32,000 bases of DNA, taken from positions 172,567-204,566 of the forward strand of contig CAJTZY010000001.1 of assembly GCA_910584085.1 (NCBI GenBank), read 5' to 3'. Every line of letters starts with the position of its first letter. The first letter of the stretch is position 1. Position numbers and translations under genes: made by a program. Positions 8,704 to 21,765 of this stretch are shown in pieces. Source of the stretch: an uncultured Bacilli bacterium. Lineage in GTDB: Bacteria > Bacillota_I > Bacilli_A > RF39 > UBA660. The notes under the pieces were generated by a model. The model saw only the letters and a program-made list of their open reading frames with translations, was not told the origin of the DNA and did not search any database.

Positions 8704-9927
8704 ATGAAAAAAATATTATACTACATATTATTTATTTTAATGCTTATTCCAGTGGGTGCTGGAGCAATGGAACTACCTAAACTATATTCAGATAAGGTTT
8801 TACTATATGATCCAGAATCACAAGAAATTCTTTATGAAGAAAAAAGTGAAGAAGTTACAAGTATTGCTAGTTTAACTAAAATTATGACTACTATAGTTGC
8901 CATTGAAAATATAAAAAATTTAGATGAACAGGTAAAAATAACTTGGAATATGTTAAGTGAAGTGCCATATGATGCATCAGTTGCTGGACTAAAAGTGGGC
9001 GATAAAGTTACATATAGGGACTTACTTTATGCATCAATACTGCCATCAGGAGCAGATGCAACAACCGCACTCGCACATAGCATAAGTGGAACAACAGATA
9101 AGTTTATTGTCCTTATGAATAAAAAAGCGAGTGAGTTAGGACTTAAACACACACATTTTTCAAACGTTACAGGTTATGATATAGATAATCATTACAGTAC
9201 TGCAAAGGAAGTATTACAAATACTTTTATATTCATTAAAAAATCCATTATTTAAAGAAATTTATGAAACTAGAACGTATACATTATCAAATGGGTTAAAA
9301 GTAGAAAGCACTGTTAACCGTTATAACAGAACACTTAAATTAGATTTATCAAAAATAATTGGTAGTAAAACTGGTTATACAGGGGATGCTGGACTTTGTA
9401 TGTCGGCCATAATAAGAACTAATAATAAAGACTTAATATTAATCACATTAGGAGCAGAATATTCTAGAACAAACCCATATAATCTAGTTGATACATTAAA
9501 TATAATAGAATATTTAGATGATAATTATAATACCAAAGTGTTATATAAAAAGGATGAAGAACTTTTTAAAATTCCCGTAAAAAATTCAAAAGTAGATGAG
9601 TATATAGTTAAAGTTAAAGATAATATAGAAAAGTATGTTGAAGTTAATTATGACACTTCAGATTTAAAATATGAGTATGATGGTTTAAATGAATTAAGCT
9701 ATAAAAATAAGGAAGGAGAAAAAATAGGGCATATTAACTACTATTATAAAAATAAATTATTTTATGATGAGGATATATATTTAGTAGAAGAACTTAAATT
9801 TTCTTTTTATAAATATTTTATGTCACATATAGTAGAATTTTCTTCATTATTTTTAATAGGTGTTATAATGATTATTTTAATAAAATCAAAATGTAAAAGA
9901 AGAAAGAGAGTCTTAAGTAAATCTTAA
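8704..9927 (+). CDS. serine-type D-alanyl-D-alanine carboxypeptidase (S11/PBP5-like) with a C-terminal membrane anchor
   Basis: Signal peptide, SxxK motif (SIASLTKIMT), KTG motif (SKTGYTGDAG), C-terminal TM helix plus a KRRKR tail. It occupies the vanY position of the cluster. Confidence 0.85.
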   Translation: MKKILYYILFILMLIPVGAGAMELPKLYSDKVLLYDPESQEILYEEKSEEVTSIASLTKIMTTIVAIENIKNLDEQVKITWNMLSEVPYDASVAGLKVGDKVTYRDLLYASILPSGADATTALAHSISGTTDKFIVLMNKKASELGLKHTHFSNVTGYDIDNHYSTAKEVLQILLYSLKNPLFKEIYETRTYTLSNGLKVESTVNRYNRTLKLDLSKIIGSKTGYTGDAGLCMSAIIRTNNKDLILITLGAEYSRTNPYNLVDTLNIIEYLDDNYNTKVLYKKDEELFKIPVKNSKVDEYIVKVKDNIEKYVEVNYDTSDLKYEYDGLNELSYKNKEGEKIGHINYYYKNKLFYDEDIYLVEELKFSFYKYFMSHIVEFSSLFLIGVIMIILIKSKCKRRKRVLSKS

Positions 9928-9934
9928 GACTTTT
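9910..9934 (+). terminator. hairpin/weak terminator that is also a phased TCTTAAG repeat
   Basis: gtcttaag (9910-9917) pairs with cttaagac (9923-9930) around a 5-nt loop, followed by tttt. It contains TCTTAAG at 9911 and 9922, an 11-bp period. Confidence 0.45.
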
Positions 9935-10019
9935 ATAATACTAAATTAAAGAATAACTAATTATTAATTGATACAATTTAAATGTGTTAATTAATAATTT
10001 TTTTAAAGGAGTGATTAAT

Positions 10020-10841
10020 ATGGCTAGAAAAACCTTGACACAAACCTTACCATTTTTAAGACCAATAAGAGTTTTTCAAAGAAACCTATTTTATCAAATA
10101 TCTATGTATTTTGATAAAAATAAATATTCAAAGAATTTTGGTAATTTATTAGGGTATGAAGTATGTAATGCGAAAACACTTATGATTAATGAAAATAGTG
10201 GACAAGATATAATATATCAAAAAAATAAAGTAGATAATTTAAAAATAACAAGTAAAACAATGAATAGAGTACTTATTTATCCAGGTGAGGTATTTTCATT
10301 TTGTTATTTAGCTAAGAATAGCAAAAAATACGGAAAATACAAAAAAGGACTTATTTTAGTTAATGGAAAAATAGTCAAAGAAAAGGGTGGAGGAATATGT
10401 CATCTAAGTAATTTATTGTACTATTTGTTTTTAATGAGTCCTCTTGATATAGTTGAAAGACATGGACATAAATTTAAATCATTTCCAAATCCTGATGAAA
10501 ATTCTTTAGAAGGAATAGATGCTACAATAAGTAGCGGCTGGTTAGATTTAAAAGTAAAAAATAATACAAATAATATATATCAAATTGTAATTGACTTTGA
10601 CGATGATTATATGTACGCTAAAATACTTACAAATAATAATGTTAATGTAAAATATTCTATTATTAATAGTAATTTTAAATACATAAAAAAGAATAATAAA
10701 ATATATGAAAATGTATCAGTTGTTAAAATAATTAAAGATAAAAACACTAATGAAATGATATCTAGTCGAAAGTTATATGATGAAGTTGTAGAGGTAAGGT
10801 ACAAATTACCTGATAGTGTAAAAATAGAGGAGGAATTATGA
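10020..10841 (+). CDS. vanW: VanW family protein
   Basis: ORF 9984..10841. AAAGGAG at 10006-10012 favours the ATG at 10020. It has the VanW-like core GEVFSF...GGGICHLSNLLYY. It is coupled to the downstream ligase gene by an ATGA overlap. Confidence 0.85.
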   Translation: MARKTLTQTLPFLRPIRVFQRNLFYQISMYFDKNKYSKNFGNLLGYEVCNAKTLMINENSGQDIIYQKNKVDNLKITSKTMNRVLIYPGEVFSFCYLAKNSKKYGKYKKGLILVNGKIVKEKGGGICHLSNLLYYLFLMSPLDIVERHGHKFKSFPNPDENSLEGIDATISSGWLDLKVKNNTNNIYQIVIDFDDDYMYAKILTNNNVNVKYSIINSNFKYIKKNNKIYENVSVVKIIKDKNTNEMISSRKLYDEVVEVRYKLPDSVKIEEEL

Positions 10842-11881
10842 GTAAAATAAAAGTTGCTATAATTTTTGGTGGATGTTCTAGTGAATATCAAGTTTCACTA
10901 GTATCTGCATCATCAGTTATTAGAAATATGAATAAAGAAAAATATGAAGTTATAATGATAGGAATAACAAAAATAGGAGATTTTTATTTATATAATGGAG
11001 ATATAGACTCTATAGAAAAAGATAATTGGTTTAATGAATCAAGAGTGGAAAAAATAACATTTTCAAGTAACAAGAGTGATAAGGGATTTATTATTTTAAA
11101 AACTGGTGAACTTGTAAAAATTGATATTGTATTTCCTATTTTACATGGAAAAAATGGAGAAGATGGTAGACTTCAAGGATTAATGGAACTATCTGATATT
11201 AAATATATCGGTTGTAATATGATATCATCCTCTATTTGTATGGATAAATATATATCAAAAAAATTAGTAGAGATGAGTGGTATACCAACTTCAAAGTCCT
11301 ATTCATTTAGTAGTTTAGATAGTTATAGTGATATAGAAGATAAAATTAGTGATTTAAACTATCCTATATTTGTAAAACCACTCGCATCTGGCTCATCATA
11401 TGGAATTACTAAAGTGAAATCCAAAAAAAATTTAAAAGATGCAATCAAAAAAGCTTTCACTTATGATGATGAAATAATAATAGAGGAAAATATAGATGGA
11501 TTTGAAGTTGGTTGCGCGATAATGGGAAATAAAGAACTCATAATAGGTGAGGTTGATGAAATAGAACTAAGTACTGATTTTTTTGATTATACAGAAAAAT
11601 ACACACTAAAAACGAGTAAGATTCATGTACCTGCTAGATTAGATGAAGATATAAGAAAGCAAATTAAAATGACTGCATTAAGTATATATAAAACACTTAA
11701 ATGTTCTAATCTTGCAAGGGTAGATATGTTCTATACTAAGGATAAAAAAATTGTCTTTAATGAGGTAAATACTTTACCAGGTTTCACCTCACACAGTAGA
11801 TATCCTAGTATGCTAAAGAAAAGCGGATATTCTTTTAGTGAAATTATTGATAAATTAATAGAACTAGGACTTAAAAAATGA
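10838..11881 (+). CDS. vanG: D-alanine--D-serine ligase, VanG-like (Ddl family)
   Basis: Ddl/ATP-grasp motifs are present: KVAIIFGG.S.EY.VSL, FPILHGKNGEDGRLQG, NEVNTLPGFTSHSRYP. The omega-loop region EIELSTDFFDYTEKYTLKTSKI matches what I recall of VanG-class ligases. It sits next to vanXY and a racemase, and there is no vanH. Confidence 0.85.
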   Translation: MSKIKVAIIFGGCSSEYQVSLVSASSVIRNMNKEKYEVIMIGITKIGDFYLYNGDIDSIEKDNWFNESRVEKITFSSNKSDKGFIILKTGELVKIDIVFPILHGKNGEDGRLQGLMELSDIKYIGCNMISSSICMDKYISKKLVEMSGIPTSKSYSFSSLDSYSDIEDKISDLNYPIFVKPLASGSSYGITKVKSKKNLKDAIKKAFTYDDEIIIEENIDGFEVGCAIMGNKELIIGEVDEIELSTDFFDYTEKYTLKTSKIHVPARLDEDIRKQIKMTALSIYKTLKCSNLARVDMFYTKDKKIVFNEVNTLPGFTSHSRYPSMLKKSGYSFSEIIDKLIELGLKK

Positions 11882-12615
11882 AAAAATATATACTTAAACA
11901 CTCGGATATTTATAAAGGCAATTTAATATTAGTAAATAAAGAACACAAAATAAATACGGAAATTAATTCAAATAATCTAGTTTCATTTAATAATAATTAT
12001 AGCAATATATTACTTGATGAATCTGCAAATAAGTTTTTACAAATTATATTAAAAGAAATTAATGGTTTAAATCAAATTATTCCAGTAAGTGGATATAGAA
12101 GCTTAATGGAGCAAGAAGAAATTTATTTTTCATCTATAAAAGAAAATGGTGAAGACTTTACAAAAAAATATGTCGCACTACCAAATTCTAGTGAGCATCA
12201 AACAGGCCTTGCTATAGACTTAGGACTTAATACTGGAAAAATAGATTTTATAAGACCATCATTTCCAAATAGTAGAATTTGTGATAATTTTAGAAAAACA
12301 TCAATAAATTATGGATTTATAGAAAGATATGAAAGTGAAAAAGAAAATATAACAGGTATAGGTAAAGAAGAATGGCATTTTAGATATGTTGGTTATCCAC
12401 ATTCAGTTATTATGAAGGAAAAAAATCTTTGTTTAGAAGAATACATAAATTATTTAAGGCAGTATGAAAAAGATAGTTTAAAATATAAAAATTATGAGAT
12501 ATCTTACATACCTTATAATAATGAAGATATAGAACTAACAATAGAAAATAATACAGTAATATCAGGAAACAATGTAGATGGATTTATAATTACAAGGAAT
12601 ATGCATGAAAAATAA
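11878..12615 (+). CDS. vanXY: bifunctional D,D-dipeptidase/D,D-carboxypeptidase VanXY (M15 family)
   Basis: Zn-ligand and catalytic motifs SGYRS..EQ, SEHQTGLAIDL and EEWHFRYVG. ATGA overlap with the ligase gene. Confidence 0.88.
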   Translation: MKKYILKHSDIYKGNLILVNKEHKINTEINSNNLVSFNNNYSNILLDESANKFLQIILKEINGLNQIIPVSGYRSLMEQEEIYFSSIKENGEDFTKKYVALPNSSEHQTGLAIDLGLNTGKIDFIRPSFPNSRICDNFRKTSINYGFIERYESEKENITGIGKEEWHFRYVGYPHSVIMKEKNLCLEEYINYLRQYEKDSLKYKNYEISYIPYNNEDIELTIENNTVISGNNVDGFIITRNMHEK

Positions 12616-13627
12616 TGTAAAAATTAATCTTGATAAATTTAGATTTCTAGCTGCCCTTTTAGTAATTTCAATACATACATATCCATTTTTAAATATAAAT
12701 AGTGAAATAGACTATATTATTACTAGAGTACTTGCAAGAACTTTAGTTCCATTTTTCCTTATGACAACCGGTTATTTTCTTATTCCAAAGGCACTTAAAC
12801 ATAAAGAAATATTAAATGGTTATGTAAAGAAGATAATAAAAATATATATTATTTGTATCTTAATTTATTTACCTATAAATATTTATACAAAGGGCCTTGA
12901 TAATCTAAACCTTATAAATATCCTTAAAGGCATATTTATAGATGGAACCTTCTATCACCTATGGTATTTCCCCGCACTTATTCTAGGAATTTTAATAACT
13001 TGTACAATACTAAAAAAATTAAATAATAAAAAATCCTTTATCATATTCATTATTCTTTATTTAATAGGATTATTTGGTGATAGTTATTATGGCTTAATTA
13101 AAAATACAATATTTGAAAATGTTTATAACTATATATTTATGATTTCAAATTATACAAGAAATGGATTATTTTATGTACCTATATTTTTGTATTTAGGTTA
13201 TACATTTAATACCCATAATTATAACATTACTAAAAAACAGAATATAATACTTTTAATACTTTTCAGTATTTTATTAGGACTTGAGGGATATAACTTATAC
13301 TTATTAGATATACCAAGACATAACAGTATGTATTTAACATTAATACCATGCATGATTTTATTATTTAATCTGCTAATTAAAACAAATGATACACAAAGTA
13401 GAAACTTAAGAGAAATATCAGAACTTATATATATTATTCATCCTATGTCAATTATTTTTATAAGAGGTATTGCTAAATTTATTAAACTGGAAAACATTAT
13501 GATAAATAATAATTTTATTCATTATATATGTGTAGTAATTTTAACTTTAATTATATGTATTATATTTATAAAAATAAAGGAAGTAATAAAACATGGCTTT
13601 AGAAAAAGAAGAAACTTCACTATCTAG
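12605..13627 (+). CDS. vanT: VanT membrane (acyltransferase-3-like) domain protein, the N-terminal part of the serine racemase VanT
   Basis: Polytopic membrane protein of about 10 TM helices, directly upstream of the racemase ORF and overlapping it by 35 nt. This corresponds to the N-terminal half of single-chain VanT proteins. Confidence 0.8.
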   Translation: MKNNVKINLDKFRFLAALLVISIHTYPFLNINSEIDYIITRVLARTLVPFFLMTTGYFLIPKALKHKEILNGYVKKIIKIYIICILIYLPINIYTKGLDNLNLINILKGIFIDGTFYHLWYFPALILGILITCTILKKLNNKKSFIIFIILYLIGLFGDSYYGLIKNTIFENVYNYIFMISNYTRNGLFYVPIFLYLGYTFNTHNYNITKKQNIILLILFSILLGLEGYNLYLLDIPRHNSMYLTLIPCMILLFNLLIKTNDTQSRNLREISELIYIIHPMSIIFIRGIAKFIKLENIMINNNFIHYICVVILTLIICIIFIKIKEVIKHGFRKRRNFTI

Positions 13628-14729
13628 TAGAGCTTGGATAGAAATAAATGTAGAAAATTTAATTTATAACATAAAACAAATAGAAAATATAATACCCAAG
13701 GATACTAAAATAATGGCAGTCGTTAAGGCAAATGCTTATGGGCATGGTATGATTACTATATCTAAAATATTAGAGGAGTATGGTATAAATGATTTTGCAG
13801 TTGCAACAATTGAAGAGGGAATAACTTTAAGAAAAAATGGACTAAAAGGAAATATTTTAATACTAGGATATACAGACCTAAGTAAAATAGAGGATATAAT
13901 AAAATATAATTTAATTCAAACTATAGTAGACTATGAATATGCATATAAGTTATCAACACTTAATTTATCAAAAAAAGTTAAAGTACATATTAAAATAAAT
14001 ACTGGAATGAATAGACTAGGAGAAAGTTATAAAAATATTGATAGTATTAAAAAAATATATAAATTTAAAAACCTTAATATTCTTGGAATATATACCCATC
14101 TTGTAGCACCAGATAGTCTTTTAAAAGAAGATATAAAATTTACACAAAGTCAAATAAATAATTTTTATACTTTAATAAATATATTAAAAACTGAAGGATA
14201 TAATGTAGGAAAAATACATATTCAAAGTAGTTATGGAATTCTAAATTATTCGAATCTTAAATGTGACTATGTAAGACCGGGGATTATTATGTATGGAGTT
14301 TGTAGTGGGAACACTAGGATAAAAATAAATCTTAAGCCAGTTCTTTCATTAAAGGCTAAAGTAACGAGTATTAAATATATAGCTAAAAATGAACCAGTTA
14401 GTTATGGTAGAAAATATATAACAAATAAAAACATTAAAATAGCAACTGTCTCTATTGGATATGCAGATGGATTGCCTAGAAGTTTATCACTCAAAAACAC
14501 TAAAGTACTTATAAATAATCATTATGCCGAAATTATTGGTAGAATTTGTATGGATCAGTTAATAATAGACATATCTAATTTAAATGTAAAAGTAGGGGAT
14601 GCAGTTACACTAATAGGTGATAAATATTATATTAGAGCAAATTTTATAGCAAAAAAAGCAAGTACAATACCAAATGAATTATTAAGTAGATTAGGTAATA
14701 GACTAGAATATAAAATAGTAAAAAATTAA
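13593..14729 (+). CDS. vanT: PLP-dependent serine/alanine racemase, the C-terminal part of VanT
   Basis: Alr-family motifs: PLP-lysine AVVKANAYGHG, plus NTGMNRLG and VSYG...A.V.IGYADG. It has its own AAGGAAG RBS 9 nt upstream of the ATG at 13593. Confidence 0.88.
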   Translation: MALEKEETSLSSRAWIEINVENLIYNIKQIENIIPKDTKIMAVVKANAYGHGMITISKILEEYGINDFAVATIEEGITLRKNGLKGNILILGYTDLSKIEDIIKYNLIQTIVDYEYAYKLSTLNLSKKVKVHIKINTGMNRLGESYKNIDSIKKIYKFKNLNILGIYTHLVAPDSLLKEDIKFTQSQINNFYTLINILKTEGYNVGKIHIQSSYGILNYSNLKCDYVRPGIIMYGVCSGNTRIKINLKPVLSLKAKVTSIKYIAKNEPVSYGRKYITNKNIKIATVSIGYADGLPRSLSLKNTKVLINNHYAEIIGRICMDQLIIDISNLNVKVGDAVTLIGDKYYIRANFIAKKASTIPNELLSRLGNRLEYKIVKN

Positions 14730-14904: not shown

Positions 14905-15486
14905 ATGTATCAAGTAAGTAGAGATAGTAATTTAAAAATTCCCAAAAAAATTGAAATAAATTATAAAAATATAAATAGTAATGATGAAATAATTGCTATA
15001 AAAAAAGCTATTTGTATAGCCAAAGATAAAAAATATATAAATAATTTAAGTAGCAATCTAAAAATAACTGATAAGGAACTAGATCTAGTATCAAAAATAC
15101 CATGTAATTCGAACGACCTAGTAGTTATAACAACAATGAAAAAATTGGGAGCTTATGTAATTACAATAACAGAAAAGTCCCCTAAAAAATTTAGAAGGGT
15201 ATTTGTAAATAGAATGCAAAATTATTGTTTAGAAACGTTAGAATATTTACTTGAAGCTAATTTTATTAGAATAGATTCAATAGATAAGAAACTACAAAGA
15301 GAAGAATTACAAAAAGAGGCAATAATTAAGTTAAAACTTTTAGGATATATTTCTATGGTCGCACAATCATCTGGGTGTATTTTAGGCAGACAATATAAAC
15401 AAATTTCTATTCAGCTAACTAAAGTAATTAATTTAATAATTGCCTGGAAAAAAAGTGACGATGATAGATGGAAATTAAAAAAATAG
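14905..15486 (+). CDS. avd: DGR accessory variability determinant (Avd-like four-helix-bundle protein) with an N-terminal extension of about 70 aa
   Basis: The C-terminal ~120 aa are basic and helical (SPKKFRRVFVNRMQNYCLETLEYLLEA ... QISIQLTKVINLIIAWKKS), which parallels the Avd pattern. The gene lies immediately 5' of the TR and RT. Confidence 0.75.
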   Translation: MYQVSRDSNLKIPKKIEINYKNINSNDEIIAIKKAICIAKDKKYINNLSSNLKITDKELDLVSKIPCNSNDLVVITTMKKLGAYVITITEKSPKKFRRVFVNRMQNYCLETLEYLLEANFIRIDSIDKKLQREELQKEAIIKLKLLGYISMVAQSSGCILGRQYKQISIQLTKVINLIIAWKKSDDDRWKLKK

Positions 15487-15557
15487 GATTATAAGTTGAA
15501 AGACTTTTAATTAAGGGAAAAATTAAATTGTGAGGCCACTTGTCCTAGTCCTTAGTT

Positions 15558-15631
15558 CGCCCGCGCGGTTAACTAAAACGGAAATAAGAATTGGAATAAT
15601 GTTAATAAACGTGATGGTGGTTGTCGTCCAG
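15558..15631 (+). repeat. DGR template repeat (TR)
   Basis: GC-rich ends (cgcccgcgcggtt ... gtgatggtggttgtcgtccag) around an A-rich core with 24 adenines. In the VR frame it carries 7 AAY codons. It matches VR 17219-17291 at every C, G and T. Confidence 0.92.
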
Positions 15632-15844
15632 ATTCACTTTTGAAGAGATTTATTGTAATCTAAAAAACAAGTGAGAGAATATATTTTATGTGAGATATGT
15701 GAGTACTGTAAAGTGAAGGAATTTTTCTCTTTTCTAATCGCTAAAAGGAATTAGTGCGATGGGAAAATTGTTGACACCTACACAACCAACAAATATTATA
15801 TATATTTTTTGGGAGTTATAAGAGGTGTTTTTTTAGGAGTAAAT
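15632..15844 (+). ncRNA. DGR spacer RNA region between the TR and the RT start (part of the TR-containing transcript)
   Basis: Non-coding stretch between the TR and the RT RBS (AGGAG at 15835-15839). The call rests on its position in the DGR architecture only; I did not resolve any structure. Confidence 0.4.
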
Positions 15845-16864
15845 ATGAAGTTAAATGAAATTTTTAATTTTGAAAATTTGTATAGAGCACATAAAAATTG
15901 CCGTAAATCTAAACAACATAAAGGTGAAGTAATAAGATTTGAAACTAATTTAAGTGCCAATATAATGAATATAATAGATGAAATATGCACAAAAAAATAT
16001 AAATTAGGGAAATATAAAAGATTTCTCATTTATGAACCAAAAGAAAGATTAATAGAGGCACTTCCTTATAAAGATAGAGTAGTTATAAGGTGTTTTTGTG
16101 ATGCATGTCTAAAAGATAGAATAGAAAAAAAATTAATTTTTGATAATGCAGCTTGCAGAGTAGGCAAAGGTACTAATTTTTCAATACAAAGATTACATAA
16201 ATTTTTAAGAAGTGAATATATAAAAGAAAATAATAATGAAATATATTTTTTAAAGTGTGATATTAAGAAATATTTTCCAAGTATTAATCATAATATTTTG
16301 ATAAATTTATTAGAGAAGGTTGGATTTTCAAGTGATGAGATGTGGTTTATTAAAAAGATTATATGTGAACAACCAAGTAATAGAGATGTTGGCTTACCAC
16401 TTGGAAATCAATCAAGCCAGTGGTTCGCACTTTTATATTTAAATGAAATAGATAGATTAATTAAGGAAAAGTTGAGAGTTAAGTGCTATGTAAGATATAT
16501 GGATGATATGATTTTAATTCATAGAGATAAAAAATTTTTAAGGGAGTGTAAGGATCTTATAGAGAGAATGTGTAAAGATAGACTTAAACTATCATTAAAC
16601 CAGAAAACTGGAATAGGTAAAGTAAGCAATGGAATAGATTTTTTAGGATATCGGCATATTTTAAATTGTAGAGGACGCGTTATAATTAAGCTTAGGGCAT
16701 CTTCTAAAATTAGATTGAAAAGACATATTAAAACACTAATGAAACTTAGGAAAAACGAGGTAGTTGATGACAATTATATTTTATTACGTAAAAATTCATT
16801 TTATGAACATATAAGATTAACTAATGAAAGTAAAGAATTAAAAAATATTGTTATACCTAAATAA
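15845..16864 (+). CDS. DGR reverse transcriptase
   Basis: ORF 15809..16864. AGGAG at 15835-15839 favours the ATG at 15845. LGNQSSQ at 16400-16420 is the DGR-type [ILV]GxxxSQ motif. YMDD catalytic motif at 16496-16507. There is no maturase/En domain and no intron RNA. Confidence 0.92.
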   Translation: MKLNEIFNFENLYRAHKNCRKSKQHKGEVIRFETNLSANIMNIIDEICTKKYKLGKYKRFLIYEPKERLIEALPYKDRVVIRCFCDACLKDRIEKKLIFDNAACRVGKGTNFSIQRLHKFLRSEYIKENNNEIYFLKCDIKKYFPSINHNILINLLEKVGFSSDEMWFIKKIICEQPSNRDVGLPLGNQSSQWFALLYLNEIDRLIKEKLRVKCYVRYMDDMILIHRDKKFLRECKDLIERMCKDRLKLSLNQKTGIGKVSNGIDFLGYRHILNCRGRVIIKLRASSKIRLKRHIKTLMKLRKNEVVDDNYILLRKNSFYEHIRLTNESKELKNIVIPK

Positions 16865-16887: not shown

Positions 16888-17218
16888 ATAAATTTTATAA
16901 AGAACAAAGTGTACTTTTTTTGATATTATTAGTAAATTTTGATGTAAATAATTTAAAAATAATATAAAATATGCTATACTTAAAATAGGTGATGTAAATG
17001 AATAAAATTAATTTAACACTTTTAACAGTAGAAGAAATTTTTGGAAGTGATAAGAAGAAGCCGTTAGAAATATTTGAAAAATATGGAACAAAAGCAGCAA
17101 TAACAGATTTTTCAGTAGCCTTAGGAGGATATATAAATGATAACTTCTTTACTGATGATGGTAAATCATTAGCTAATAGAACAGGATGGTGGTGGACCAA
17201 AAGTCCAATAAACAACGA

Positions 17219-17291
17219 CGCCCGCGCGGTTGACTGGATCGGGAGTAAGGGTTGGATAGTGTTAATGAACGTGGTGGTGGTTGTCGTCCAG
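17219..17291 (+). repeat. DGR variable repeat (VR)
   Basis: 73 nt. Compared with the TR there are 11 substitutions, all at TR adenines, plus one A deleted. The invariant 3' end gtggtggttgtcgtccag looks like an IMH. The VR covers codons ~75-98 of the target. Confidence 0.92.
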
Positions 17292-18934
17292 CTTTACCGT
17301 TCTCATCAATCTCTAAAATCTCCTCGAACGTAGTGAGAGGTAGAAATGGTATTCTCGAAGTAGAATTTGGAGAATATCCACAGTGGACTTGTTCAAAACA
17401 ATTAGGTAAAACATTAGAAAGATTGTATAGAAGTAACACCCTAAATAAAACAGGAAAATGTTATACAACAGATTCTAGACCATATAGTGAATATGATAAG
17501 GGATTCGCTTCTCAAAAACATATAGAATATGAATATAATGGTAAAAAATATGTTAGAGTCAAGGTTAATTCATATTTTGATGGTAGTGAAATAACATTTT
17601 CAAATGGAGAAAAGTATAAAGATGGGGATTTTATTTGGATTAGTGTTAGCCCTATAAAATGGTTAGTAGATGAAAAAAATGATTTAGCAATTACTAAAAA
17701 CATAATAGTATCTGGAGTTCAGTTTAATATAGAAAGTAATTATAATGGGAAAAATTTTGATAAGATGAATATAAAAAAATTTTTTGATAACGATTTATCA
17801 AAAGATATAGTATTATCAAAAGATTATGATGTAAATTTAAATAAGACTGATATAATGCCCAAAAACTTATTGAAAAAGAAAAATCCATATAATTTTAACT
17901 TTGATAATGTAAGTGAAGAGGATATAATAAAAGGTTCAGTAGAGAGCAATGTTTCAGTATTTTTACATGGACAATCAAGTGAGGGTAAAAGTGCAAGGGT
18001 AAAACAATTAGATCCAGATTTAGAAATCATATATTTGGGTACAGCAACACCAGAAAGTTTAAATGGAAAAAGTGTGTATAATTCTAATACAGGAGAAATG
18101 ATAGATGTTCCTCCTACATGGTATAAAAAAATCAAACAAAAATGCGAAAGTGAACCAAATAAAATTCACATATTGTTTTTTGATGAATTAACAAATGCAG
18201 TACCTTCAATACAAAAAATGGCATTTAATATTGTACTTGATAAGGAAATAGACGGAAAGTGGAAACTTCCAGATAATGTAAGAATAGTTGCAGCTGGAAA
18301 TGAGTTAAATGATTCCCTTGCAGCTAATACAATGGCGGAACCATTATTTAACCGTTTCGCACATGTATATATACAAACAACAGCTGAATCTTGGTTAAAA
18401 TGGGCGTGTACGCCAGAGCAAGAGTATAAGAGATTAGATTATCAGGAGTCAAAACAAGAATATAAAATACATCCTGCAATTTATTCTTTTATAGCATTTA
18501 GGGGAGATGAAGTTTTAAGAACAGAATATACTGGCGATAAACCAAATGCAGATCCAAGAAAATGGGAATTAGCCTCTAAGGTACTATACCAAACTAGAAA
18601 TCCTGAAATGCTAAGGGCCTTAGTTGGTGAAGATATAACATCTGAGTTTTGTGCATTTTGTAAACAACGGGTTATAACTCTTGAAGATGTTATTAATGAC
18701 AATTATTCAGAGTATGATTTAGAAATGGGAATGTCAGAAAAGTATGCTACTATAGTAGGATTATCTCGATGTAATTATGAAAATCTAAAAAAAGTTAGAA
18801 TTTTTGCAATGAAATTAGGTTCAGAATTTTGTGCGTTATTTGATAGTTTATGGGCGCATGGCGACTTAGAAAGAGTAGAAAAAATTGCAGAATTAACGAT
18901 AGATAATGATTATATTGGAGGTATGAAAAAATGA
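17252..18934 (+). CDS. AAA+ ATPase (MoxR/AAA_5-like) ORF as it stands, the downstream part of the frameshifted DGR target
   Basis: Walker A GQSSEGKS (17969-17992), Walker B ILFFDE (D-E at 18182-18187), sensor-1 RIVAAGN, and EPLFNRF, an Arg-finger-like motif. Upstream there is a region with EFGEYPQ and SPIKWLV motifs. Confidence 0.8.
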   Translation: MDSVNERGGGCRPALPFSSISKISSNVVRGRNGILEVEFGEYPQWTCSKQLGKTLERLYRSNTLNKTGKCYTTDSRPYSEYDKGFASQKHIEYEYNGKKYVRVKVNSYFDGSEITFSNGEKYKDGDFIWISVSPIKWLVDEKNDLAITKNIIVSGVQFNIESNYNGKNFDKMNIKKFFDNDLSKDIVLSKDYDVNLNKTDIMPKNLLKKKNPYNFNFDNVSEEDIIKGSVESNVSVFLHGQSSEGKSARVKQLDPDLEIIYLGTATPESLNGKSVYNSNTGEMIDVPPTWYKKIKQKCESEPNKIHILFFDELTNAVPSIQKMAFNIVLDKEIDGKWKLPDNVRIVAAGNELNDSLAANTMAEPLFNRFAHVYIQTTAESWLKWACTPEQEYKRLDYQESKQEYKIHPAIYSFIAFRGDEVLRTEYTGDKPNADPRKWELASKVLYQTRNPEMLRALVGEDITSEFCAFCKQRVITLEDVINDNYSEYDLEMGMSEKYATIVGLSRCNYENLKKVRIFAMKLGSEFCALFDSLWAHGDLERVEKIAELTIDNDYIGGMKK

Positions 18935-19338
18935 GTCAAGAAAAAAGATTAGAAATGTTAAATGATTATATTAAAATGAATATTGCTCCTATCTTAGTGG
19001 AAAATATCCCATCTAATATATTTGGAAGTAATTCAGTTATTCTTCCAGCAGAACTTGATATATCAATGCTAAATGGGCATTATGAAGGGATAGAATTTAT
19101 GCCTCCTTCATGGTATGTTCAAGTAGTTAGAAATTCTAGTAGTAGCAATAATATCTTAGTGATAGATGAAATCTCAAGGGTATCAAAAGAAGATCAAATG
19201 AAATTTTATGAACTATTAAAGTATCGAAAAATTGGAACATTTGATTTACCAAAAAATTGTGTAATAATTATTACTTGCAGAGATAAGAATATTCCATTAA
19301 TTAATGAAAAATTAGTATCTTTATTTGTACATATTTAG
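18931..19338 (+). CDS. small Walker-A-less AAA-like protein (degenerate paralogue of the upstream ATPase core)
   Basis: ATGA overlap with the ATPase gene; GGAGG RBS. LNGHYEGIEFMPPSWY...ILVIDEISRVS...VIIITCRD...LVSLFVHI aligns by eye with LNGKSVYN..DVPPTWY...ILFFDELTNAV...RIVAAGNE...FNRFAHVYI of the upstream protein. Confidence 0.65.
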   Translation: MSQEKRLEMLNDYIKMNIAPILVENIPSNIFGSNSVILPAELDISMLNGHYEGIEFMPPSWYVQVVRNSSSSNNILVIDEISRVSKEDQMKFYELLKYRKIGTFDLPKNCVIIITCRDKNIPLINEKLVSLFVHI

Positions 19339-19345
19339 GTGAATT

Positions 19346-20839
19346 ATGATTGTAGATAAAGATACTATAAAAAAAAGATTACTTGTAAAATATCCTTTTT
19401 TTAGAAGTACAATAGCTAAACTTAAAATAGTTGAAGATATAAATTGTCTAGGATATAATGGTAATCCAACAGCTGGTACAGATGGAGATACAGTATATTA
19501 CCATCCAGACTTTATGAATAACTTAGATGAAGATGAACAACTTTTTATATTTGCTCATGAAGTTGGTCATGTCGCTCTCAATCACATTATAAGAAGTGAA
19601 GGTAGAGATCAAGAAATTTGGAATATAGCAGCAGATGCCGTTTTAAATGCAAATTTAATTAAGGATGGTTTAAAGTTTGTTAAGGGCGGGGTTAATATTC
19701 CAGAAGCCATTAATTACAATGCAGAAACCTTTTATAATAAATTGATTCAGGAAAAAGAACAAAAAAAATCACAAAATCAAAAAGGTAATGGTAATCAACA
19801 ATCAAATTCAAAGGCGGATGAGTGTAAAAATAGTAGTCAAAGTGATTCTAGTAATCAAAATATAAAACAAAATAGTAATGACAGCAATAATATACCCGAT
19901 GATGCAAACTATGATGTCGGATTTGATACTCATAAAATGTGGAATGATGCGATAAATAAGACATTTAATTCTAGTGATGGAACAAATGAATTAGATAACT
20001 CCAAAAATGACCGTAATAACAAGGATAAACAGAGTTTTCTAGAAAAACTATTTAAAAAAAAGAAAGACAAAGGTAGACAATTAGAACAAACTGAAAAGGA
20101 AAATCAGGAAAGCGAAAATCAAAATAATATTTTTGAAATGGATGAACAAGAGGCATTCAGCAAAAATAGAGAGGAAAAGAAAAAATTACTTAGGGAATTA
20201 AGGGATTCATTTGCCAAACAGTCTATAGGTGCAGGGAATACTACTGATCAGTCAATAAGGAAGATAGATAATATTGGAACATCTATTTCATTAATAGACT
20301 GGAGAAAATTACTAAAAGAATGTGTAAAGTTTGATATAGATTGGACTTATAAAAATGCAACTATAGAAAATGGTGTAGTTACTCCATATCTTGAAGAAAC
20401 TCCAACGCCAGAAACTGAAATAGTTTTAGATACCAGTGGGTCAATAGATGATAATTTACTTAGAAATTTTTTAATGGAATGCAAAAATATACTTCAGACA
20501 TCCAAAGTGAAAGTGGGATGCTTCGATACTAAATTTTATGGTTTTCAGGAGATTAAAACGGTTAAAGACATAGAAAATATGGAATTTAAAGGACATGGCG
20601 GTACAGATTTTAATGTTGCAGTAGAAGCTTTCTCAAAACGTGTAGAAAATAAAATAATATTTACTGATGGTCAAGCGAGTATGCCAGAAAAGTCAATAGA
20701 TGCAATTTGGATAGTTTTTGGTGGAAGGAAAATTAATCCTAAAGGTGGAAAGGTAATTTATATTTCGGACGAACAATTTAAAAGATTATGCTTTAAACAA
20801 AATGATGATAATTTACAAGGTAAGAATAGGACAAGATAA
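19346..20839 (+). CDS. DUF2201-type protein: N-terminal HExxH putative metallopeptidase, low-complexity linker, C-terminal vWA-like domain
   Basis: FIFAHEVGHVALNH (HEVGH at 19556-19570) followed by WNIAADAVLN. MIDAS-like VLDTSGSID (20429-20443). GHGGTDF and IIFTDGQ motifs. A linker of about 170 aa is rich in N, Q, S, K, E and D. Confidence 0.85.
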   Translation: MIVDKDTIKKRLLVKYPFFRSTIAKLKIVEDINCLGYNGNPTAGTDGDTVYYHPDFMNNLDEDEQLFIFAHEVGHVALNHIIRSEGRDQEIWNIAADAVLNANLIKDGLKFVKGGVNIPEAINYNAETFYNKLIQEKEQKKSQNQKGNGNQQSNSKADECKNSSQSDSSNQNIKQNSNDSNNIPDDANYDVGFDTHKMWNDAINKTFNSSDGTNELDNSKNDRNNKDKQSFLEKLFKKKKDKGRQLEQTEKENQESENQNNIFEMDEQEAFSKNREEKKKLLRELRDSFAKQSIGAGNTTDQSIRKIDNIGTSISLIDWRKLLKECVKFDIDWTYKNATIENGVVTPYLEETPTPETEIVLDTSGSIDDNLLRNFLMECKNILQTSKVKVGCFDTKFYGFQEIKTVKDIENMEFKGHGGTDFNVAVEAFSKRVENKIIFTDGQASMPEKSIDAIWIVFGGRKINPKGGKVIYISDEQFKRLCFKQNDDNLQGKNRTR

Positions 20840-20862
20840 ATATAAGATCTATGTCCTTTTTT
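20828..20862 (+). terminator. intrinsic terminator closing the target operon
   Basis: aggaca(a)agat (from 20828) pairs with atct(a)tgtcct (to 20857), followed by ttttt. The stem overlaps the stop codon. Confidence 0.65.
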
Positions 20863-20907
20863 GATATCAAACATTGGGCATTTTCATATAATAAGTAGGT
20901 GATATTA

Positions 20908-21765
20908 TTGAATATATTAATAAATTATAAATTGTATATAATTTTATATTTGATATTTTCTGTATTATTTAATCAATATTACAAAGTATCAACTAAATAT
21001 TCGAAAAATGATGGCGCACTCACTATATTACTTGAACTGATTGGAAGTTTATTTTGTATAATTATGATCCCATTCTTTGAAATAAAATTCCCAAACAATC
21101 CTAGTTCATATTTATTCTTCTGTGTAGCAATAATTTTTTATACATTAAATAATAGATTATCTACAACATCTAGAAGTGGAATAGAAGCCTCTACTTATTC
21201 TATAATTAAACAATTATCTACAGTATTTATGATATTTGCTGGGATATTGTTTTTTAAAGAGTCGTTTAGTATATATAAAATAATAGGTGCGTTTCTAATT
21301 GTCTTTAGCAATATTTTAGTTTTTTATAAAAGAAAGGCTCTAAAATTTGATAAATATATAATACTAGGGGTTTTAGCAAATATTTGCATGACAATCGCAT
21401 TATTTATAGATGTTAACTATTCAGAATATTTTAATTTAGCGATATACGTTTTATTAACCTTACTTATACCATCCATATTAACATTTATATTTGAAAAAAT
21501 TCATATTAAAGATATTATTATAGAGTATAAAAATAGTAGCAAAATAAGTATATTTATAACATCCCTTTCATGGGGATTTATGCTTATCTTTAAGCTTTTA
21601 GCTTATAATTTTGGCGAGGTAATTATAGTCGCACCTCTATGTAGTTTAACAGTTATTTTAAATATTTTTGCTAGCTTTCTATTTTTAAAAGAAAAAGATA
21701 ATTTAGTAAAAAAAATTATAGCTAGTATTCTAATAATAATAGGTATAATTTTAATTAAAATATAG
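20908..21765 (+). CDS. DMT/EamA-family transporter
   Basis: ORF 20899..21765 starts at a GTG. AGGTGA at 20895-20900 fits the in-frame TTG at 20908 better, so the start is uncertain. About 10 TM helices arranged as two EamA-like halves. Confidence 0.75.
   Translation: MNILINYKLYIILYLIFSVLFNQYYKVSTKYSKNDGALTILLELIGSLFCIIMIPFFEIKFPNNPSSYLFFCVAIIFYTLNNRLSTTSRSGIEASTYSIIKQLSTVFMIFAGILFFKESFSIYKIIGAFLIVFSNILVFYKRKALKFDKYIILGVLANICMTIALFIDVNYSEYFNLAIYVLLTLLIPSILTFIFEKIHIKDIIIEYKNSSKISIFITSLSWGFMLIFKLLAYNFGEVIIVAPLCSLTVILNIFASFLFLKEKDNLVKKIIASILIIIGIILIKI

Follow-up and report, generated by a model that had tools for sequence, protein, structure and literature searches.

A diversity-generating retroelement diversifies the N-terminal module of a MoxR-like ATPase encoded with a zincin-vWA protein in an uncultured Bacilli bacterium

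To our knowledge, diversity-generating retroelements (DGRs) are the only natural machines for targeted protein hypermutation in prokaryotes, and the roles of most of their cellular targets are an open question. The DNA analysed here, a 32,000-nucleotide (nt) stretch from an uncultured Bacilli bacterium (contig CAJTZY010000001.1, positions 172,567 to 204,566; hereafter, the window), contains a DGR within a cassette of ~6 kb, in which an Avd gene, a template repeat (TR) and a reverse transcriptase (RT) gene are followed by genes for a sensor-ATPase, a 135-amino-acid (aa) AAA fragment and a peptidase-vWA protein. Unlike in most such cases, the output enzymes are explicit, being an ATPase and a zinc peptidase. 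The architecture, with a DGR-rewritten N-terminal module fused to a MoxR-like ATPase, in an operon with a zincin-vWA protein, is very likely to be as described, and several known systems share parts of it.

Among these are the VMAP 'ternary' MoxR-vWA conflict systems, which are diversified by DGRs (Kaur, Burroughs, Iyer & Aravind 2020, PMC7159879; Doré et al. 2024, PMC10907252). In both cases, the retroelement diversifies a ligand-binding domain of a peptidase-associated MoxR-ATPase and vWA system, predicted to act as a cytoplasmic NTP-dependent sensor/effector in biological conflicts, and the published DGR/MoxR-vWA analogues have been interpreted as sensors (PMC7159879, PMC10907252). However, the variable repeat (VR) of VMAP systems is in a C-terminal FGS/C-type-lectin (CLec) domain on the vWA protein, whereas here a DUF6273-like module close to the N-terminus of the ATPase itself carries it. 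The MoxR ATPase of VMAP systems is instead a separate, plain gene, and their third protein, VMAP, has a trypsin or caspase domain, whereas here it is the vWA protein that has an N-terminal zincin (DUF2201_N). Compared by description, rather than with VMAP profiles, the window's operon has neither a VMAP-type third protein nor an effector- or FGS-bearing vWA protein, its extra gene being the 135-aa AAA fragment. The hosts also differ, as VMAP systems are mostly found in multicellular cyanobacteria, gammaproteobacteria and similar organisms, rather than unicellular gut Bacilli and Clostridia.

Covalent fusion of a hypervariable DGR domain to an AAA-type ATPase, in bacteria with small genomes, has been described in the CLec-AAA ATPase targets of candidate phyla radiation (CPR) bacteria (Paul et al. 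2017, as summarised in PMC10907252 and PMC5758913). By the description in those summaries, the CLec/VR of the CPR targets is C-terminal, their RTs form a separate clade, and no DUF2201 partner is reported. The pairing of the two enzymes is itself known from jumbo phages, in which a MoxR ATPase is encoded with a vWA protein bearing an N-terminal metallopeptidase, and a role in virion assembly has been proposed (Iyer et al. 2021, PMC7824862). These are the same two families in the same pairing (phrog_1297, E 1.5e-46, and phrog_1314, E 2.8e-63, for the window's ATPase core and peptidase-vWA protein, respectively), although the phage MoxR-like ATPases are ~350 aa, lack an N-terminal sensor module, are only 25-28% identical (those of N4-like and PA5oct-like phages), and are not DGR targets.

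N-terminal VRs are also known from gut phages, in the tentaclins and in further DGR targets of the DUF6273 type (PMC10743442, PMC11792537). As in the tentaclins, the VR occupies the C-terminal edge of a DUF6273-type domain, close to the N-terminus of a protein encoded directly downstream of the RT, and the scaffold WW..P...A..V..G...G.RP is common to the window's module and the tentaclin of Phage nd12, as a weak profile alignment (hhalign E 0.0015, probability 16%). Yet tentaclins are virion or adhesin proteins that continue into Ig-like domains, whereas here a beta-rich domain and an AAA+ ATPase follow. The closest solved ATPase folds belong to NorQ-NorD and RavA-ViaA, which likewise combine an ATPase with a MIDAS-containing vWA partner, but mature fixed metalloenzyme clients, without a variable domain, peptidase or retroelement.

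The original prediction, made from the DNA sequence alone, left open whether this configuration had been described. Its general principle has been published, both as DGR-diversified sensors in MoxR-vWA conflict systems and as CLec-AAA fusions, but the exact combination was not found described. The combination that appears undescribed is that of an N-terminal VR module on the ATPase itself, a DUF2201 zincin-vWA partner, an extra AAA fragment and the absence of a VMAP protein, in unicellular gut Firmicutes. In full-text searches, a DGR paired with DUF2201, MoxR, AAA or a metallopeptidase was found described nowhere, other than in singleton Pfam lists in one supplement.

The retroelement, its target and the operon

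The cassette comprises the following features, with open reading frame (ORF) coordinates given in the window.

14905-15486, + strand: Avd-like DGR accessory gene (193 aa; the four-helix Avd part, aa 70-187, follows an N-terminal extension)
15557-15637, + strand: TR of 81 nt, in the spacer between Avd and RT, aligned to the VR
15836-16864, + strand: DGR RT (342 aa from its ATG; the ORF opens at TTG 15809)
16998-17333, + strand: 5' part of the target gene, encoding the VR-bearing subdomain (aa 1 to ~110 of the repaired protein; a frameshift leads to a premature stop)
17218-17297, + strand: VR, at codons 74-100 of the 645-codon target
17256-17824, + strand: remainder of the sensor module, read in the second frame, with the 3' constant part of the VR (GGCRPALPF) and the beta-rich middle domain (aa ~112-276; EFGEYPQ and SPIKWLV motifs)
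17882-18934, + strand: MoxR-like AAA+ core and helical C-terminal region (aa ~296-645), placed from motifs and from AlphaFold2 (AF2) and Foldseek
18931-19338, + strand: P-loop-less AAA+ fragment (135 aa), coupled to the ATPase gene by an ATGA overlap
19346-20839, + strand: zincin metallopeptidase-vWA protein (497 aa), with HEVGH, a low-complexity linker and vWA
20828-20862, + strand: weak terminator-like hairpin and U-run (RNA fold -12.1 kcal/mol, z -1.9)

The evidence supports this being a complete, genuine DGR whose target is a cytoplasmic AAA+ ATPase, diversified in its N-terminal module. Its RT, Avd and TR are each intact, and the TR and VR differ by 12 substitutions, with all of the internal ones (12/12) at TR adenines, as well as by one deleted A (TR 15595). 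Two mismatches are at the edges of the repeats, one at the first compared base (15557, a T in the TR), and the other at a C near the 3' edge (15635). Adenines account for 26 of the 81 TR bases; in the frame of the target, the TR reads ARAVN*NGNKNWNNVNKRDGGCRPD, with abundant AAY codons and one in-frame TAA. The retroelement makes a complementary DNA (cDNA) of the TR, erring at adenines, and installs it at codons 74-100 of the downstream gene, thereby randomising ~12 surface positions on the fixed scaffold GWWW..P..ARAV-x-G-x-W-x-V-x-R-GG-RPALP. A single VR had been predicted at codons ~75-98 of a frame of ~645 codons, and no other was found on either strand of the window.

The RT itself has the motifs YMDD and LGNQSSQ, read in the translation, the latter being of a type diagnostic of DGR RTs, and it matches RVT_1 (E 5e-18) and phrog_1423 (E 1e-99). 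Among annotated phages, its best match was an unannotated gut phage contig (40.5% identity), followed by Phage nd12 (40.2%), in which the RT precedes a target with a VR near its 5' end, the same order as in the window. The accessory protein matches phrog_3206, 'Avd protein of DGR' (E 2.3e-15), and falls below the curated cut-offs of both NCBIfam DivGenRetAVD (E 1e-5; 25.6 vs 80 bits) and Pfam bAvd (E 0.002; 18.9 vs 40 bits), and it is kept directly 5' of the TR and RT in those related loci that still have a DGR. A conserved target-recognition hairpin 3' of the VR was also considered, and rejected; the window has a 10-nt inverted repeat at 17350-17376, but equivalent positions were not enriched for stems in loci with or without a DGR.

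As sequenced, the window's copy of the target is an OFF allele. The deletion of one nucleotide, corresponding to TR adenine 15595 and falling between 17255 and 17256 in codon 86 of the VR, splits the gene into ORFs of 111 aa (16998-17333) and 560 aa (17252-18934), such that the sensor is truncated at 111 aa, and restoring one base recovers a protein of 645 aa. Searching with the repaired protein gave 3,583 matches, of which >100 were ~645-aa proteins with 57-61% identity over 99-100% of its length. Judged from these sequences, the fused sensor-ATPase is the native, conserved state.

The VR is not at the extreme C-terminus, the classical position in lectin-type DGR targets. A C-type-lectin fold had nevertheless been predicted for this N-terminal module, and was not confirmed. 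The module was modelled by AF2 on a 75%-identical homologue (P0121), rather than on the window protein, giving a confident structure (pLDDT 90.5, pTM 0.84) in which the VR is mostly in a loop between short strands, and which had no significant Foldseek match in the PDB or BFVD. At the sequence level, aa 8-100 of the window protein align to positions 87-168 of the 172 in the DUF6273 profile (PF19789), below the cut-off (E 0.027; 14.7 vs 23.5 bits), with two relatives exceeding it (P0002, 27.3 bits; P0325, 34.4 bits), and 21 of 116 family members matching with E<0.01. These matches are always to the C-terminal part of the profile, and end at the VR, with the N-terminal half never matched. The VR subdomain can therefore be called DUF6273-like only weakly, and a link to the lectin-fold DGR targets is one that we infer from this similarity and from the literature. 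The beta-rich middle domain (aa 112-276) matched no Pfam family, even at E 10. Its EFGEYPQ...WLV...FMDNYF part resembles the N-terminal half of DUF6273, but the possibility of a circularly permuted DUF6273 was not supported, as hmmscan of the region in seven homologues found no DUF6273 at E values up to 10.

The remainder of the protein is a MoxR-like ATPase, as had been predicted. Walker A (GQSSEGKS, aa 325), Walker B (ILFFDE, 392), sensor-1 (AAGN, 432) and FNRF (451) are all present, and the first three of these motifs do not vary across the family alignment. When residues 290-645 of the window protein itself were modelled by AF2 (pLDDT 85.9), the top Foldseek matches in the PDB were NorQ (1.8e-7), RavA (5.5e-7) and the MoxR-family protein CHU_0153 (2.9e-6), interleaved with MCM subunits; MCMs belong to the same AAA+ clade as MoxR. 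The DSSP string of the model suggests hairpins at the helix-2 and pre-sensor-1 positions. In Pfam, however, the window ATPase matched only Sigma54_activat (17.1 bits), with no match to AAA_3 or AAA_5, whereas distant relatives exceeded the cut-offs of these families (P0278, 40.8 bits for AAA_5 and 38.7 for AAA_3; P0373, 27.9 for AAA_3) in an exhaustive search that recovered 241 cluster representatives at E<=1e-30, and 1,173 at E<=1e-10. Hence this is a divergent branch, which is better described as MoxR-like than as a curated member of the family. Sequence searches of the PDB found no match to either the family profile or the DUF2201 protein.

The ATPase gene is co-transcribed with those of the AAA fragment and the zincin-vWA protein, and is translationally coupled at the first junction, where the predicted ATGA overlap (18931-18934) is present, as is the 7-nt gap before 19346. 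The 135-aa protein lacks a P-loop, keeps a Walker-B-like ILVIDE, and can be aligned with the upstream ATPase from Walker B to sensor-1 (BLASTP E 3e-6), with further similarity to phrog_1297 (E 1e-5) and, weakly, AAA_5. The vWA/MIDAS partner of the ATPase is encoded two genes downstream of it, and both of the domains expected of it are above their cut-offs (DUF2201_N, E 5e-28, 98.8 vs 23.2 bits; DUF2201, E 1.3e-15, 58.1 vs 26.4 bits), with an intact HEVGH at aa 71, and a complete MIDAS consisting of DTSGS (362), GGTD (418) and TDG (440). The ATPase, HExxH and MIDAS motifs were all located where the original prediction had put them. It had also proposed that the proteins lack signal peptides and transmembrane helices; no suggestive hydrophobic segment was found in any of the three operon proteins, which are predicted to be cytoplasmic. 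The proposed terminator at the operon's end was only partly upheld, as there is a modest hairpin with a U-run, but a consensus terminator scan called none.

Hypervariability and null alleles across the family

Scanning one genome per species identified relatives in 259 genomes, overwhelmingly of uncultured gut Bacilli, 'Tenericutes', Coprobacillus CAG:605 and Clostridium CAG:417, with some Clostridia. In 77 related loci that were fetched, the order of sensor-ATPase, ~133-aa protein and DUF2201 protein is practically universal, with the AAA fragment present in 71 and the DUF2201 vWA protein linked in 73. Association with DGRs was assessed in the 62 loci with enough upstream sequence. A full RT is directly upstream in 23, RT remnants in eight, and neither in 31. 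Using an A-tolerant ungapped scorer, TR/VR pairs were found in the loci of 21 other species, each being an ungapped match of 56-100 nt at the same codons of the target (~65-104), with mismatches almost exclusively at TR adenines (11/11 in L007, 14/14 in L016 and 12/12 in L040, for example). Homologous operons are thus repeatedly associated with DGRs, in agreement with the original prediction.

The variation between proteins is concentrated at the same site. The only unalignable stretch of the family alignment is the VR, within the invariant scaffold of GWWW, ARVV, G, V and R-GG-RPALP, and in nine full-length members of a single 90%-identity cluster (of 818), all columns with at least four residue types are at aa 65-88. 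Ongoing diversification is therefore seen at the level of the family, with hypervariable positions confined to the VR among proteins that are at least 90% identical. No TR was found within 8 kb, on either strand, of the loci lacking an RT, and yet their VRs still differ among close relatives, such that their DGRs are possibly trans-acting, or were recently lost. For instance, P0032 and P0069 share 98.1% identity outside the VR, whereas 8 of the 18 positions within it differ. The locus of P0069 (L001:8001-11794) has no RT or TR within 8 kb, despite this difference, which suggests trans-acting diversification or very recent loss of a DGR.

The TRs themselves often encode stops. In-frame TAA codons, one or two per TR, are present in 13 of the 22 family TRs, at conserved positions corresponding to codons ~80 and 86-88. 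In the window, the TAA at 15571-15576 is in frame with codon 80 of the VR, where the window's own VR has TGG (Trp); the other TAA-bearing TRs are those of L007, L011, L013, L014, L016, L017, L022, L025, L028, L029, L031 and L041. Adenine mutagenesis converts TAA to TNN, encoding Phe, Leu, Ser, Tyr, Cys, Trp or a stop, and a faithful or partly mutated copy of a TAA-bearing TR would truncate the target. This outcome is seen in 5 of the 21 other DGR-linked loci, in which the VR has a stop (TGA, TAG or TAA) exactly at a TAA-derived codon (L007:8253; L013:8220 and 8238; L016:8220; L017:8181; L025:8235), with no further stops found outside the VR of the same five genes. Reassignment of the genetic code was rejected as an explanation, as the conserved Trp residues of these genes are encoded by TGG, and never by an in-frame TGA.

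Including the codon-86 deletion in the window, an interruption within the VR is seen in 6 of 22 DGR-linked targets, whereas stops elsewhere in the gene were found in 2 of 68 alignments from loci without a TR. Hence the DGR frequently generates null alleles of its target gene. Such alleles may be tolerated, or may represent an OFF state that is reversible by later retrohoming; in the window, the TR is intact, and retrohoming from it once more would repair the reading frame. Alternatively, the VR null alleles may be artefacts of the consensus sequences of metagenome-assembled genomes. Considering the split frame of the window alone, an error of sequencing or assembly in a hypervariable region, with the gene intact in the organism, is a serious possibility, although it has less than an even chance of being correct. 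VRs are heterogeneous in populations, consensus assembly can yield chimeric or indel-bearing VRs, and just one base is missing from an otherwise intact cassette. Yet this base is missing exactly at a TR adenine, and the VR stops at TAA-derived codons in five other species' loci imply a recurrent feature of the family, rather than a one-off error. An NCBI record, which annotates only the 533-aa downstream ORF (P0001), also counts against an artefact.

The combination of TAA codons in the TR with a high rate of VR null alleles raises a new question, that of how DGRs balance diversification against the loss of function. Together with its abundance, compactness and experimental tractability, this behaviour is what makes the family of interest.

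Proposed function and competing explanations

By analogy with the described conflict systems, defence is a plausible role for the cassette, and the likeliest of those considered. Proteins of phages or other mobile elements would be recognised in an anticipatory manner, and we regard such a role as close to an even call. Under this mechanism, a ring of ATPase subunits would display several copies of the hypervariable binding site, with the vWA/MIDAS domain of the partner docking on the ring, as NorD does on NorQ. Capture of a cytoplasmic protein by the variable site would trigger ATP-driven remodelling that either passes this protein to the tethered metallopeptidase, or activates the peptidase. 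A population would hold many sensor variants, enabling invader proteins to be recognised in anticipation of their arrival.

The case for such a role in defence is circumstantial. The cassette is inserted at varying chromosomal positions, with recombinases, RhuM/Fic, HipA, ParE and IS605 as occasional neighbours; it is found as tandem duplicates in some loci; in the window, it differs in GC content from its flanks; and the supplement of Belalov et al. (PMC10053308) includes PF13203 and PF09967 among the 'immune Pfams' near DGRs. Several observations weigh against it. No PADLOC 2.0 HMM matched the sensor-ATPase, 135-aa protein or DUF2201 protein, with the RT alone matching generic RT models, and most of the sampled neighbourhoods are of a housekeeping type (the van-like cluster, tRNA synthetases, ribosomal proteins and spore genes). 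In half of the informative loci, neither an RT nor a TR lies within 8 kb, meaning diversification is either not obligatory or acts in trans, and the frequency of VR null alleles shows that cells can do without the gene, at least for short periods. The formation of a ring, docking by the vWA domain and the hand-off of a substrate are steps proposed by analogy only. Furthermore, the phage relatives of the ATPase and peptidase-vWA pair have been proposed to be chaperones of virion assembly, rather than immunity proteins (PMC7824862).

A more elaborate version of the defence hypothesis, which we consider rather unlikely as a whole, would make these proteins antibody-like programmable cytoplasmic proteases, held by the population as a repertoire against proteins of phages or mobile elements, with a recognition patch continually rewritten by the DGR and a stochastic ON/OFF switch, based on TAA codons, built into the generator of the repertoire. 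The conserved TAA codons of the TR would make key contact positions accessible to Trp, Tyr, Phe, Cys and Leu, at the cost of frequent nonsense alleles. These alleles would silence self-reactive or costly variants, until reversed by the next retrohoming event.

Of the functions outside immunity, the foremost is that of a chaperone or protease adaptor tunable by the DGR, through which gut bacteria with small genomes redirect proteolysis or remodelling as endogenous or imported proteins change (regulators, toxins, or partner- or host-derived proteins, for example). The predominance of housekeeping neighbourhoods would suit this role, as would the closest structures, NorQ/NorD and RavA, being maturation chaperones, and the hosts being mainly reduced-genome uncultured Bacilli or 'Tenericutes', echoing the CPR and DPANN organisms in which AAA-CLec DGR targets are common. 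We nevertheless judge it unlikely, as a fixed cellular substrate needs no ~12 randomised contact positions, and frequent null alleles with a patchy, mobile distribution are more in keeping with an accessory gene of conflict than with a core factor in proteostasis. The cassette could instead be a selfish or offensive module of a mobile element, used in anti-defence, addiction or competition between elements, with the variable domain directed at proteins of the host or of rival elements. This would fit with the RT being closest to those of gut-phage DGRs, with the phage-rich ATPase and peptidase-vWA families, and with some loci abutting serine recombinases, IstB or ParE. It is a quite improbable explanation, however, given that the fused sensor-ATPase was found in just one of 2.9 million IMG/VR contigs and is nearly absent from annotated phages, with tblastn of the sensor module finding no match in 50,697 phage records, and that the cassette has no integrase or transfer genes, with the window's copy being between a van-like cluster and an EamA transporter.

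The same near-absence from viral collections bears on the proposal that the locus is the remnant of a prophage system of virion-assembly chaperones, in which the DGR target is really a receptor-binding protein. The role suggested by Iyer et al. for the phage MoxR and peptidase-vWA pair (PMC7824862) would be consistent with this origin, as would the receptor-binding 'tentaclins' being the DUF6273 DGR targets of gut phages. Yet no phage structural, packaging or lysis genes were found in the window or in the sampled loci, the target has no signal peptide, Ig domain or tail-fibre domain, and thousands of proteins have the VR module covalently joined to the ATPase. The original prediction had named a prophage structural or packaging component as the observation that would undermine it; this reading is instead largely refuted, and we consider it very improbable.

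Whether in defence or otherwise, the family is common in human and animal guts, with >3,500 proteins found, relatives in 259 species-representative genomes, and 818 sequence variants in one 90% cluster alone. A hypervariable system this large, and as yet uncharacterised, bears on the dynamics between phages and their hosts in uncultured Bacilli. All of the parts are soluble and predicted to be cytoplasmic, and the cassette is only 6 kb; hence the sensor hypothesis is directly testable by reconstitution. If the mechanism proposed above were true, it would provide a natural scaffold for evolvable targeted protein degradation.

Genomic setting and variant architectures

All genes around the cassette are on the + strand of the window, which is AT-rich (GC content 0.21-0.31). 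The GC content of the cassette (at 17000-21000 of the window) is 0.28-0.31, compared with 0.21-0.26 in most of the flanking kilobases, which is consistent with horizontal acquisition. Downstream, the cassette is bounded by the EamA transporter and a GH5 cellulase. Directly upstream of the DGR, at 8704-14729, is a vanG/vanC-like cluster of the glycopeptide-resistance type, consisting of a Peptidase_S11 D,D-carboxypeptidase, VanW, a gene of the D-Ala-D-Ala-ligase family, VanY, an Acyl_transf_3 membrane protein and an alanine racemase, with the overlap of the last two genes representing a split VanT-like arrangement.

The sensor module, of ~280 aa, is separable, occurring alone, in tandem before an ATPase, or as a separate gene. 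Three stand-alone modules in NCBI genomes (P0121, P0122 and P0123) are ~330 aa, and 65-75% identical to aa 1-278 of the window protein. They have an extra N-terminal helix and a coiled-coil-like C-terminal tail, with no ATPase, and could represent further targets of DGRs, in relatives of the genome from which the window comes. Other proteins combine the same units in different numbers: P0002 (909 aa) has two tandem VR modules before one ATPase, P0005 (1018 aa) has one module followed by two ATPase units, and P0306 (882 aa) has an ATPase fused to the DUF2201 vWA domain. In another lineage, represented by L084 (7001-11660) and L086 (protein P0190), a gene for a 283-aa module overlaps a separate gene for a 466-aa AAA_5-like ATPase. 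The locus continues with genes of 156 aa and 130 aa and a DUF2201_N protein, adjoining serine recombinases, IstB and a ParE toxin, while L086 contains a second module/ATPase pair.

Rearrangements were also apparent at the level of the operon. In L089 (6432-11911), a second sensor-ATPase gene directly follows a complete operon. In L057 (7900-8120), the Avd gene and the spacer between Avd and the TR are joined straight to the target at the VR, with the target continuing from aa 75, and the RT and the 5' end of the target missing. This looks like a deletion caused by homologous recombination between the TR and VR.

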